In this document: positions 27,001 through 36,000 of the stretch, piece by piece
Numbering within the stretch: position 1 is the first letter of the stretch
Layout: every line of letters starts with the position of its first letter
Virus record (IMG/VR): IMGVR_UViG_2721755646_000010
Length of the DNA: 64,000 nt
Origin: a virus
Taxonomy: Duplodnaviria; Heunggongvirae; Uroviricota; Caudoviricetes
Direction: 5' to 3' (one strand)
Position numbers: made by a program

Positions 27001-30000
27001 ACCATACTGAAAATGCTGTTTGAATGTTCATCTCTGAAAGAGGACTATGAATGAAAAAGGTATTGATTGCAGCACTTATTTCCGGTGTGTCTTTTGGCGC
27101 TTTTGCACAGCAGGGTGGTTTCCAGGGGCCAGAAGCAGAGCGTTCAACAGTAGCGCAGGCAAAAGAACTGAAGGATGATGCATGGGTTATCCTTGAAGGG
27201 AGCATCGTTAAAAAAGTGGGTGATGAACGTTATGAGTTTCGTGACAATAGCGGGACAATTGTCACGGATATTGATGACAGCGTATGGGCCGGGCAGAATG
27301 TTTCTCCGAAAGACAAAGTAAGAATTGAGGGTGAAATTGATAAAGACCTGAGCAGTGTTGAAGTTGATGTAAAGGCACTGAAATTATTAAAGTAACCGCC
27401 CCTGCTTGTTAAGCCCGTCTTACTGACGGGTTTTCTGTTTGTACATTCCGGCGTATTGCCTTACAATTCGCGCAGTCAGCCTGAACAACTGACACCTGCT
27501 GTCACCGGAGAATCCGATGACACAACACATAAAATCCCACAATTCTGAAGCCGACCCGGAAATTAAGCAGGGGAGGCGTTTTCGTGCGCCTCAGTATGGC
27601 TGGTTTCACTATCTGTTCTGTACGATCGATGAGGCAGATATGCTTCAAGAGGCGTATCTGCGTCGCGGTGTCCGTGTGGAGCGGAGTCTGAACGCTGATC
27701 GTCTGACCTGGACCGTTTCTGTATATCTTCCTGTTCGTGCACATCTGCCACGGACACATGCCTGCTACCGTCAGCGCGTCTGGAGGTAATGTGCGGGTAT
27801 TACTTCGACCTGTTCTGGTTCCGGAACTCGGGCTGGTGGTCCTTAAGCCCGGTCGTGAATCATTGCCAGTTTTTCATCGCGGCAGGGTGCTGGTGGAGCC
27901 GGAACCGAAAAACATGCGGGCGCTGCCATCTGGAGCGGTTCCTGCTGTTCGCCAGCCGCTGGCGGAAGATAAATCACTGCTGCCATTTTTCAGCGATGAG
28001 CGGGTGATTCGTGCAGCTGGCGGCGCTGGTGCACTGTCTGACTGGTTATTACGTCACGTGAAATCCTGCCAGTGGCCACACGGCGATTATCATCACAGCG
28101 AAACCGTTATTCACAGTTACGGTGCTGGCGCAATGGTGTTGTGCTGGCACTGCGACAACCAGCTGCGCGACCAGACCTCCGAATCACTTGAGCAACTTAC
28201 TCAACAAAATCTGACAGCCTGGATGATTGACGTCATACGCCATGTAATGAATGGCACGCAGGAGCGGGAATTATCGCTGGCTGAATTATCCTGGTGGGCA
28301 GTCTGCAATCAGGTGGTGGACGCATTACCTGAGGCAGTATCGCGTCGCTCTCTGGGATTACCGGCGGAAAAAATCCGCTCCGTATACCGTGAAAGCGACA
28401 TCATACCGGGAGAACAGACCGCCACCAGCATACTGAAGCAGCGCACAAAAAATATTGCGCTACCGCCTCACACCCACCAGCAACAGAACCCACCACAGGA
28501 AAAGACGGTGGTCAGCATTGCCGTTGATCCGGAGTCTCCGGAATCCTTCATGAAACGACCTAAACGTCGCCGCTGGGTAAATGAGAAATACACACGCTGG
28601 GTAAAGACACAGCCGTGTGCGTGTTGTGGTAAGCCAGCGGACGATCCTCATCATCTGATTGGTCATGGTCAGGGCGGAATGGGAACAAAATCCCACGATA
28701 TTTTCACGCTACCGCTGTGTCGGGAGCATCACAACGAGCTTCATGCGGATCCGCTGGCGTTCGAAGAAAAGCATGGTTCCCAGGTTGATTTAATTTTTCG
28801 TTTTCTTGATCACGCCTTTGCAACCGGCGTGCTCGGGTAAAAGAGGTTACTGATGCGTATAGAGTTTGTTTTGCCTTACCCGCCGACGGTGAACACCTAC
28901 TGGCGACGTCGTGGCAGCACATATTTTGTATCAAAAGCCGGTGAGCGTTATCGCCGGGATGTGGCACTTATTGTTCGCCAGCAGCGGCTGAAATTAAACC
29001 TGTCCGGAAGGCTGGCGATAAAGATTATTGCAGAGCCACCGGATAAGCGCCGTCGTGACCTGGACAATATCCTGAAAGCACCACTGGATGCGCTGACGCA
29101 TGCCGGACTTCTCATAGACGACGAGCAGTTTGATGAAATCAATATTGTGCGCGGCTAGCTCGTTTCTGGTGGGCGGCTGGGCGTGAAGATTTACAAAATT
29201 GAAAGTGAGTGAGCATAAATATGATATACCCGGAAATTACAGGCAAAAGCGGTGAGCATTTACGCCTGAAAACGCTGGAAAGTGTCTGGATCCAGGGGAA
29301 ACTGCGTATGTGGGGGCGTTGGTCGTATATTGGCGACGGTAAGACGGGAAATATGTTCAACCAATTACTGACCTCTAAAAAGCTGACAAAAACGGCAATT
29401 AACGAGGCGCTCCGGAGGATGAAAAAAGCGGGTCTGGACAAACCTGAACTTGAGGCTTTTTTGCGGGATATGATCAACGGCAATCAAAAAAGCTGGCTGG
29501 CACATTGTACCGATTCAGAGGCGTTAATAATCGATAGGGTTATTGGTGAAGTACTGGCAGGTTATCCCGGGCTGCTCAATGTTCTGAGTCAGCGTTATGT
29601 GGGGCGGGGGATGACTAAGCGCAAAATGGCTGAATTGCTGAATGATGCACATCCGGAATGGAGTTTAAGAACCTGTGAAAGACGCATTGAGCATTGGCTA
29701 AAGGTGGCAGAATTTATTTTGTACAAACCAATGGTTATGGCTTTTGGTATAGAGAAAAAAGTTATTGCTTTTTGACGTAAAAACTGCTTCAATTCCGGTA
29801 AGCTTCGCAAAGCTGTACCGCGAGGCGAATAGCAGACATGGACATTTGAAAGAGCCCGCTTTTTGCGGGTTTTTTTATGACTGAAAAACGGCACGGGGCG
29901 TTAAACGCGCTGGTGGTTGCTAATACCGGTCTTTCAACTTGCTGGCTTTTTCGACAAGAGTTATTGGTATGTCACGTTAACCGGAAAAGGGAAAAAGACA

Positions 30001-33000: not shown

Positions 33001-36000
33001 GCTGGGGTGTGGGTAAACCGTTATATCAGGACCTGATTGCGCGCACCAAAGCTGCATTACAGAAGAACCCGAAAAATGTGTTGCTGGCGGTGTGCTGGAT
33101 GCAGGGAGAGTTTGACATGAGCGCCGCCACCCACGCACAGCAACCTGCGCTGTTTACAGCCATGCTGACACAGTTTCGTGCTGACCTCTCCGTGTTTAAC
33201 GCGCAGTGCCATGGTGGCAGTGCTGCAGATGTGCCGTGGATTTGTGGTGACACGACGTATTACTGGAAAAATACATACGCTACCCAGTACGACACCGTGT
33301 ACGGCGGGTATAAAAACAGGGAGAGTGAGGGCGTTTATTTTGTGCCCTTCATGACAGACGGTAACGGCGTCAATACCGCCACTAACGCGCCGGCAGAAGA
33401 TCCGGATATTCCGGCATCAGGATATTACGGTGCGGCATCGAGAACGAATGGAAACCAGGTATCATCAAACCGCCCGACACATTTCAGTTCATGGGCGCGC
33501 AGGAGCATTATTCCGGATCGTCTGGCAACCGCTATTCTGAACGCAGCCGGGCGCACCTCAGCCTTCATCAGTGGTAAGGCACCGGAAATCAAACCCTCGC
33601 CCGGCGGCAACACGCCATCGGGTCCGTCTGCAGATACGTCCGTTCGCACAATCTCCCTGCTGCCGGCAGCCGGAGAGGCTGCTGCGCAGGGCTGGAGCAT
33701 TAAGGATGGCGGAATTCAGTTGTCAGATGGTGTATTTAAGATCACCAGGCAGAGCAATAAAACCTGGTCCCTGACGCATCCGGTGGATGACGCAATTACC
33801 CTGCTGACACAGGGCGGCAGACTGACCTGTAAGTTCCGCCTGTCAGGCGCACTGACCAACAATCAGTTCGGGCTGGGGATTTATCTGTATACGGACGCTC
33901 CCGTTCCTGATGGTGTGGCGATGACGGGTACCGGTAATCCGTTCCTGATGTCGTACTTCACTCAGACCACTGACGGCAGAGTGAATCTGATGCATCACAG
34001 GAAAGCCGGAAACACGAAGCTGGGGGAGTTCGGCGATTACGGTAACGACTGGCAGACGCTGGAGCTGGTGTTCACCGCCGGCAGTGCCACGGTTACTCCG
34101 AAACTGAATGGAGTGGCTGGCCCGGCATTCCAGGTTATAAAAGACAGTCTGACACTGGGACTGAATGCGCTGACGCTGACGGATGTTACAAAAAATGCAG
34201 CGTATGGCGTTGAGATAGAAAGTCTGATGCTGGAGATAAATGCACCGGCAGCATAATAAAAAAAGCCAGCGACTGACCTGAAAAAGAAGACGCTGGCTAA
34301 AAGGCCTTATATGTTTGTAGAGACTTATTTTTCACAGACAGCAATGATGCCTGTCAATATATTATCAATATGCGGATTGTTTCAGTTACAGATGCTTTAT
34401 TAAGGAAAAAAACAGCCAGCACTGACTTTCGGTGGAGAGGTGCTGGCTCAAAAGGATAGATGTACTTCACATGTTGCTTCTATATGGCAGTACATTTTCT
34501 GACAGACAGTGACGGATGTTGTCAAGATATTGTGTCATTTATAACCTGAATCAGGGGGTGGCCGGAATGTTATCTGGCATTTTTAGCAGAGCCTGAATGC
34601 CATAATCACGGCTCCCGGCGTTGGCCGTCAGTGGGTGACACTGGCGGCTTTTTTGTTTTTCTTTACTTTCATTTTCTGTCGGCGGTGACGGAGACATACA
34701 TCAGATGGAAAAAATCACAACAGGTGTGTCATACACCACGTCAGCGGTGGGGACGGGATACTGGTTACTGCAGCTGCTGGACAAAGTCTCTCCGTCCCAG
34801 TGGGTGGCGATAGGCGTGCTGGGGAGTCTGCTGTTTGGGCTGCTGACATATCTGACGAACCTGTATTTCAAGATTAAAGAAGACCGGCGTAAGGCGGCGC
34901 GGGGAGAGTAAAGTGATGAAGAAAAAATACGAACTGGTTGTTAAAGGGATAAATAATTACCCGGATAAGATTACTGTTACTGTGGCACTGGAAATTGGTG
35001 GGTATCCGTCACTGTTGTTGCCAGATGTGGCGATTAGTCTTGACCGTACTGAAGGTGCCACGCTGGAGTTTTACGAAGCTGAGGCGAAAAAGCAGGCGAA
35101 GCAGTTTTTCATGGATGTTGCTGCCGGGTTATGTGAAGGGGATGGTCCGTTGCCGGAAAAGCGCCCCGTAATTTTAGAGGCGCAGGATGTGTTGATAACC
35201 TACAGAGGAAAACTACCGGGAATAATTACGGGTTCTCTGAAGACTCCACCGCTGGCCTGAAGACTTAACATATCCAGGGATTTGAAATCGATAAACCCTG
35301 ATAAATATCCATGAACGCAAAAATCAGATACGGCCTGTCGGCTGCCGTTCTGGCGCTGATTGGTGCAGGGGCGTCTGCGCCTGAAATCCTCGACCAGTTT
35401 CTGGATGAAAAGGAAGGTAACCACACCACAGCATACCGTGATGGTGCGGGTATCTGGACCATCTGCCGTGGAGCCACCCGGGGGGATGGTAAGCCTGTTA
35501 TTCCTGGCATGAAGCTGTCGAAGGAAAAATGCGACCGGGTTAACGCCATTGAGCGTGATAAGGCGCTGGCATGGGTGGAGAAAAACATCAGAGTGCCGCT
35601 GACCGAACCCCAGAAAGCGGGGATCGCGTCATTCTGTCCGTACAACATTGGCCCCGGTAAGTGTTTCCCGTCGACGTTTTACAGACGGATTAATGCAGGA
35701 GATCGAAAAGGTGCCTGCGAAGCGATTCGCTGGTGGATTAAGGACGGTGGCAGGGACTGCCGTATTCGCTCAAATAACTGTTACGGTCAGGTATCCCGTC
35801 GTGACCAGGAGAGCGCGCTGGCGTGCTGGGGAATCGACAGATAAGCAGAATATTTTGCTGAAAAATGAGGTTTGCTTACATGGACGGATAACACGAAATC
35901 CTGCAAATTGGCAAAATGTAAGTGAATAAAGTCAAAACAGTTGTTTAACACTCAGGCACCGTAATGATGCCTTTGTCATTTCTGCGCATCTCACGCGCAT

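Follow-up and report, generated by a model that had tools for sequence, protein, structure and literature searches.

The accessory segment between Q and the lysis cassette of the O157:H7 prophage Sp11: the psrB regulator locus, tRNA genes, tciA-tciB and nanS-p in an interval without stx

Introduction

From the late antiterminator gene Q to the holin gene S, the Stx-converting phages 933W, YYZ-2008, phiP27 and phiSTEC1575-Stx2k share one order, namely Q, a terminator, a winged-helix (wHTH) open reading frame (ORF), the tRNA genes ileZ, argN and argO, a slot that can hold stx, an STnc100-family small RNA (sRNA) gene, nanS-p, and S. We describe the equivalent region within 64,000 nucleotides of viral DNA (Caudoviricetes; IMG/VR record IMGVR_UViG_2721755646_000010; this whole stretch is referred to as the window). 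The interval at 29775-34256 of the window is 100% identical to the prophage Sp11 of Escherichia coli O157:H7 Sakai and to O-island 57 (OI-57) of strain EDL933, where its coordinates in the corrected assembly are 1904716-1909197. It opens at the final base of the stop codon of Q and closes with the stop of nanS-p; all of its parts are on the + strand and every ORF is intact. We consider it highly probable that the interval is a stretch of accessory ("moron") genes in the lambdoid prophage Sp11, situated between Q and the lysis cassette and carrying PsrB as its regulator, and no evidence contradicting the Sp11 and PsrB identification was met in the analysis. The locus is already known, each component having been annotated and most having been studied experimentally, and to that knowledge the present analysis adds little.

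PsrB and its relative PsrA are described in two reviews as AraC/XylS regulators found only on prophages, and are linked there to effector loci and to the Pch regulators (PMC10877973, PMC8565820). According to these reviews PsrB activates hdeA and gadE, binding at the promoters of both, and increases glutamate-dependent acid resistance, PsrA and PsrB repress type III secretion of the enterocyte effacement locus (LEE) indirectly via GadE/YhiF, and the two proteins share "90% identity" (PMC10877973, PMC8565820); the primary studies are those of Tree et al. 2011 and Yang et al. 2015 (via PMC10877973, PMC8565820).

An earlier note on this DNA, made from the sequence alone, had described 29775-34256 as a Q-to-lysis cargo interval without stx that holds a Q-dependent terminator, an AraC-family regulator, a lysidine-type tRNA-Ile, a tRNA-Arg(UCU), a TerB-like protein with a coupled membrane peptide, and a sialate O-acetylesterase. 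The description of the interval is borne out by its parts and by the comparison with Stx phages, and every listed item was found at the coordinates given (the dependence of the terminator upon Q is taken up in the Discussion); the list had left out the wHTH ORF, the STnc100 gene and an argN-like remnant. The note had also proposed that the AraC-like protein be compared with PsrA, PsrB and PatE, and that comparison gave a stronger answer than expected, the gene being psrB (Z2104) itself.

Results

Identity of the regulator gene

The regulator ORF, psrB (Z2104 / ECs2191 / WP_000301797.1), occupies 30333-31046 on the + strand and encodes an AraC/XylS regulator of 237 amino acids belonging to the GadW/YdeO/GadX group. 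Z-numbered genes are provided with PCR primers and their EDL933 coordinates in the HReVAP paper (PMC4763077), and these primers were mapped to the window. For the Z2104 pair the matches were exact, at 30593 (+) and 30731 (-), and the resulting amplicon of 158 bp is that of the paper; the primers for Z2100 (DUF968), Z2101 (RusA) and Z2102 (Q), and for Z2108 and Z2109, which lie within nanS-p, likewise matched exactly and in the published order, and the spacing from Z2100F to Z2104F was 2597 bp in the paper and in the window. Because the Z2104 primers map exactly, and because the reviews equate z2104 of OI-57 with the gene encoding PsrB (PMC10877973, PMC8565820), the ORF is taken to be PsrB itself and not a mere homologue of it.

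The psrB product matched Pfam HTH_AraC (2.9e-13) and HTH_18 (2.4e-09) in a C-terminal double helix-turn-helix, and matched the GadX DNA-binding domain (PDB 3MKL) at 2.2e-18. It can be aligned over its full length with YdeO and GadW from residue 1, with a shared N-terminus MxxVCSVI, and the start of psrB is therefore placed at 30333, as in RefSeq, and not at that of the shorter Sakai annotation. The best promoter-like site of the interval, a sigma-70-like candidate for psrB (ATGATA-16-TATAAT, 30270-30297, + strand; 10 of 12 consensus positions matched), lies 36 nucleotides upstream of the ATG and was recognized by its match to the consensus only. A full-text literature search for the locus tag ECs2191 returned no match.

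The exact match and published spacing of the Z2104 primers and of five neighbouring primer pairs, the presence of a single psr copy in the 64-kb window, and the agreement of 91% identity to the other O157:H7 copy with the "90% identity" reported for PsrA versus PsrB, make it very improbable that the regulator is instead PsrA, or a third, uncharacterised allele of the Psr family to which the published PsrB phenotypes would apply by analogy only. What speaks for that assignment is that O157:H7 genomes hold two psr copies about 91% identical in protein, and that the old EDL933 locus naming is not fully reliable, psrA being placed by the reviews in OI-50/CP-933N and the second copy being found in Sp4.

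PsrB and its relatives

With PsrB as the regulator of the interval, no difference was found from the described PsrA/PsrB regulators: it is a 237-residue AraC/XylS protein, prophage-borne and linked to a pch gene, pchB (ECs2182) lying downstream of psrB in Sp11. At least one psr copy (DNA identity of at least 86%) is held by 725 of 5426 complete genomes, and O157:H7 genomes hold two. The second Sakai copy, ECs1087 on Sp4, is identical to PsrB at 215 of 237 residues (91%; 22 residues differ) and stands in the arrangement wHTH, psr, ileZ, argN, argO, nanS-p, adjoining pchA; Sp4 differs from Sp11 in having an intact argN and in lacking tciAB. The four copies inspected, those of Sp11, Sp4, the O55:H7 DEC5E prophage and phiSTEC1575-Stx2k, show 91-100% protein identity and all stand in a prophage or phage context.

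The K-12 proteins of the same group are much more distant from PsrB, with 34% identity for GadW and 31% for YdeO over the full length, and 41% for GadX over the C-terminal half. The closest relatives are thus the prophage and phage copies (91-100%) and not a housekeeping AraC protein (31-41%). GadW, YdeO and GadX resemble PsrB in the M-x-V-C-S-V-I N-terminus (full-length homology), in the C-terminal double helix-turn-helix and in the reported gadE target, whereas PsrB is only 31-41% identical to them, is prophage-borne, and lies in a Q-to-S interval. The NCBIfam YdeO model aligned along the whole of PsrB, but at 106 bits versus an equivalog cutoff of 348. The AraC-like protein ECs0287 of Sp1, which from its location we presume to be PatE, is 37% identical to PsrB over the full length, and AraC-like homologues of about 38% identity occur between Q and the holin gene of other lambdoid phages, e.g., 1H12.

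The reviews place psrA (z1789) in OI-50/CP-933N (PMC10877973, PMC8565820). No AraC gene was found in the Q-to-nanS-p interval of Sakai Sp6 / EDL933 CP-933N, where tciA is truncated, and in Sakai as well as in the corrected assembly of EDL933 the PsrA-like copy (ECs1087) was located in Sp4, adjoining pchA. This mismatch in the placement of psrA may result from a misassembly in the original EDL933 sequence.

The stx slot in Sp11 and in Stx phages

When Stx1A and Stx1B were used as tblastn queries against the whole 64-kb window no match was better than E=0.27; stx is absent, and the slot is occupied by tciAB. In the Stx1 phage YYZ-2008, Q is followed by stx1AB and then by the shared block of STnc100, nanS-p and S; stx1AB ends 95 bp short of a block sharing 99% identity with window 32112-34704. 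From 32112 on, the interval shows about 99% identity with Stx1a-converting phages, and the value is the same for the sequence from STnc100 to S. Phage phiP27 has the order Q, GIY-YIG nuclease, wHTH, DNA methyltransferase, ileZ, argO, stx2e, holin; phiSTEC1575-Stx2k has Q, wHTH, a psr homologue (91.6% identical), ileZ, argN, argO, stx2k, holin; and the O55:H7 DEC5E prophage has wHTH, psr, three tRNAs and nanS-p.

Judged from these gene orders, the position of psr upstream of the tRNA genes is that of the DNA methyltransferase gene in phiP27. The wHTH-psr-tRNA block would then lie upstream of the stx slot, and the slot, between argO and STnc100, would hold tciA-tciB in Sp11. Compared with the Stx phages, Sp11 differs in having tciA-tciB in the slot in place of stxAB, in the decay of its argN, and in having psrB at the phiP27 methyltransferase position.

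Distribution of the interval

At least 80% of the interval 29775-34256 is carried by 364 of the 5426 complete E. coli genomes, and it is kept at 100% in many complete O157:H7 genomes, hundreds of sequenced O157:H7 genomes having it in identical form. None of the phage records in the collection searched covered the whole interval.

tciA-tciB and the STnc100-family gene

The first gene of the slot, tciA (31497-31928, + strand; ECs2190), encodes a TerB-domain protein of 143 amino acids (Pfam TerB, 9.2e-14; PHROG 632, 1e-68; TerB structure PDB 2JXU, 2.9e-7). The second, tciB (31925-32092, + strand), encodes a DUF3927 peptide of 55 amino acids (Pfam DUF3927, 4.3e-17; PHROG 1470, 4e-30) with two hydrophobic segments, and its GTG start overlaps the tciA stop by 4 nucleotides (GTGA); the two domains, the overlap and the hydrophobic segments together sustain the description of a TerB-like protein with a coupled membrane peptide. 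The same succession of a TerB protein and a DUF3927 peptide is seen in TciA/TciB of phage P1 and of D6-type plasmid prophages, and the TerB part is related to TerB of the ter operon (2JXU), from which Sp11 tciAB differs in that no other ter genes are nearby. TciA homologues were found in 131 phage records and recur in unrelated phages of many genera; among them are plasmid prophages of the P1/D6 type, jumbo phages of Erwinia and phages of Vibrio. A PADLOC search for defence systems gave no meaningful match for the wHTH protein, PsrB, TciA, TciB or NanS-p, and the literature searched gave no functional study of TciA/TciB, the only pertinent matches being two papers on P1-like and D6-like plasmid prophages.

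The STnc100-family sRNA gene with its terminator spans 32097-32320 on the + strand (Rfam RF02076), beginning 5 nucleotides past the tciB stop. The Rfam match, at 32097-32269, scored 104.7 bits versus a gathering score of 47 and covered model positions 1-206; the terminator hairpin is at 32294-32312 and is followed by a T-run. In Stx phages this element stands shortly after stxB. In Stx2 phages STnc100 is located 75 nucleotides downstream of stx2 (PMC12370729), and both quantitative PCR primers used for STnc100 in that paper are present in the sequence of the window. A second STnc100 match, of 20 bits and E=0.33, was taken as noise; located at 31266-31370, it overlaps argO and the terminator behind it. 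Elsewhere in the window, Rfam matches above the gathering score were seen at 26607-26781 (+), 19346-19397 (-) and 5971-6037 (-), for sok antitoxin RNA, DicF sRNA and sar antisense RNA.

nanS-p and the spacer to the holin gene

The last gene of the interval, nanS-p (Z2108/Z2109 / ECs2189; 32406-34256, + strand), encodes a prophage sialate O-acetylesterase of 616 amino acids with matches to Pfam DUF1737 (2e-15), SASA (1e-12) and DUF6645 (4.6e-18). Residues 59-379 matched NanS (PDB 3PT5) at E=9.4e-122, the C-terminal domain matched PDB 6YP6 at 2.5e-29, and the GQSN serine motif is present in the translation ("AGQSNA"); the SASA domain, the structural matches and this motif are those of a sialate O-acetylesterase. 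The nanS-p alleles of EDL933 are reported to encode active esterases on Neu5,9Ac2, permitting growth on mucin sialic acid (PMC8065619). The allele within the window is described here as a predicted esterase.

The GQSN motif is common to Sp11 NanS-p, to the phage NanS-p esterases (933W Z1466; phi24B vb_24B_21, 6YP6) and to NanS/YjhS (3PT5). Sp11 nanS-p is like the phage NanS-p genes in its DUF1737-SASA-lectin-like C-terminal layout and in its position just upstream of the holin gene; it differs from them in length, with 616 amino acids versus 636-657 in the Stx-phage alleles (PMC10462455), and in that its C-terminal domain matches 6YP6 only at E=2.5e-29.

The spacer between nanS-p and the holin gene (34257-34704) has terminator-like sites on the + strand at 34561-34578 and 34623-34649, and is 99.3% identical to the corresponding spacer of the Stx1 phage YYZ-2008. 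A 2026 preprint presents YYZ-2008 as a PasA-containing reference phage, with pasA located between the esterase and holin genes. From this sequence identity, a PasA-like sRNA gene is likely present in 34257-34704.

The tRNA cluster

The first tRNA of the cluster, ileZ5 (31075-31150, + strand; found by ARAGORN and Rfam), has a CAT anticodon and was labelled Met by ARAGORN, and is annotated as tRNA-Ile in both Sakai and EDL933. It is identical to K-12 ileX at 68 of 76 positions (89.5%) versus 52 of 77 (67.5%) for metT and metU, and it keeps the pairs C4-G69 and C5-G68, reportedly the acceptor-stem pairs used by TilS. Its first anticodon-stem pair is A-C, where that of ileX is G-U. The ileX-like body, the two acceptor-stem pairs and the two reference annotations support, at the level of sequence, the reading of ileZ5 as a lysidine-type tRNA-Ile2 (CAU). 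The second tRNA, argO5 (31251-31327, + strand), was found by both ARAGORN and Rfam as tRNA-Arg(UCU) with a TCT anticodon, and is identical to K-12 argU at 53 of 77 positions.

Within the 100-nucleotide spacer between the two tRNAs lies an argN-derived, tRNA-like remnant (31157-31243, + strand), recognized by alignment with argN1 of Sp4, which extends over the acceptor, D and T stems. The remnant has a replaced and longer anticodon arm and a T loop of 6 nucleotides; neither ARAGORN nor the Rfam tRNA model made a call at 31157-31243, and it is probably a pseudo-tRNA. The same argN remnant is carried by phiP27. The cluster is closed by an intrinsic terminator at 31340-31367 (+ strand), with an 8-bp stem including 6 GC pairs, followed by TTTTTTGT.

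The tRNAs of the cluster read ATA and AGA, which are rare codons in E. coli. In the local genes ATA and AGA together account for 0.7-5.5 of every 100 codons, in keeping with the common view that phage tRNAs provide for the decoding of rare codons.

Q, the terminator after Q, and the winged-helix ORF

The late antiterminator gene Q (Z2102 / ECs2193; 29209-29775, + strand) is of the DUF1133 type and is distantly Q21-like. Its product matched Pfam DUF1133 at 3.7e-105 and Phage_antitermQ at 33.1 bits versus a cutoff of 26, PHROG 753 ("anti-termination protein Q-like") at 5.8e-81, and, weakly, the solved Q21 chains 6P18/6JNX (E=5e-4); the Z2102 primers map inside it at 29391 and 29494.

An intrinsic terminator follows Q at 29853-29876 (+ strand) and is a candidate for the tR' of the late promoter. 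Its GC-rich stem, AGCCCGC/GCGGGTT, occupies 29853-29871 and the 7-T tract behind it runs to 29876, so that the terminator ends 101 nucleotides past the Q stop, and the hairpin dominates both the minimum-free-energy and the centroid fold of 29796-29885; a clear terminator is thus present after Q, as had been described. The RNA ending at 29876 would have a length of at most about 100 nucleotides, or about 75 if started at the strongest candidate found by eye for the late promoter PR', which is a weak one (TTGCTT-17-TTCAAT, 29765-29793). By position this RNA is an analogue of lambda 6S RNA, IsrK and StxS, which are discussed together in PMC7547250; no function of the terminated RNA after Q was reported in the literature searched. 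Membership of the isrK family was considered and rejected, the match at 29802-29875 being sub-threshold (19.8 bits vs 50) with a score derived mostly from the terminator hairpin.

Between this terminator and psrB lies the TrmB-like winged-helix ORF of 65 amino acids (30000-30197, + strand; ECs2192), annotated in both Sakai and EDL933, which matched PHROG 331 (function unknown) at 3.9e-37 and, weakly, Pfam TrmB. The wHTH gene recurs after Q in phiP27 (L23) and in Stx2k and Stx2a phages.

Discussion

The segment between Q and S in Sp11 is a mosaic of self-contained units: the post-Q leader, the wHTH gene, psrB, the tRNA group with ileZ, the argN remnant and argO, then tciA-tciB, STnc100, and nanS-p. 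Three of these, the short RNA after Q, the tRNA cluster and STnc100, end in a terminator-like hairpin and a T-run. Credible intrinsic terminators follow the Q leader, argO and STnc100, and two more stand before S. In the lysogen each unit would be expressed from its own promoter, for psrB possibly from the candidate at 30270-30297. After induction, RNA polymerase modified by Q would pass every terminator and continue into S and the lysis genes.

Several points weigh against this account of the segment. The interval holds 9 terminator-like sites versus a shuffle expectation of 5.2 +/- 2.2, which is not clearly above chance. An independent promoter for each unit is something we infer, as is the Q-dependence of the post-Q terminator, for which the position of the hairpin was the sole guide. 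Neither the late promoter PR' nor a Q-binding element was located, the promoter scan giving no consensus-quality site between Q and the terminator. Finally, the function of PsrB was taken from the two reviews and not directly from Tree 2011 or Yang 2015.

These points bear upon how the segment is read out, and a broader objection is that the interval belongs to a defective prophage and is decayed and silent, with genes that have no current role and with incidental terminator- and promoter-like sites. Although Sp11 is a resident prophage with a degenerate feature in the tRNA-like remnant at the argN position, and although the paralogous Sp6 interval has a truncated tciA, we regard such decay as very improbable and discount it, the ORFs being intact and the interval 100% conserved across many O157:H7 genomes, PsrB phenotypes and active EDL933 nanS-p esterases being reported in reviews, STnc100 RNA having been detected in Shiga toxin-producing E. 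coli, and a near-identical block being present in complete Stx phage genome records.

For two parts of the accessory segment a role can be suggested, and we do so with considerable reserve, regarding it as a rather unlikely proposal: tciA-tciB could form a membrane-associated module for protection of the lysogen (e.g., by superinfection exclusion or by sensing of membrane stress), and the RNA after Q could be a trans-acting sRNA like StxS.

The comparison of Sp11 with its relatives yields a map of positions for the Q-to-S region, which reads wHTH; regulator or methyltransferase; tRNAs; stx or tciAB; STnc100; nanS-p; an intergenic sRNA region; and S. In the complete genome of phiSTEC1575-Stx2k, ileZ-argN-argO and stx2k follow immediately after the psr homologue. 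One phage can therefore carry a psr gene as well as stx, and this bears on how the control of acid resistance and type III secretion could spread along with the toxin.

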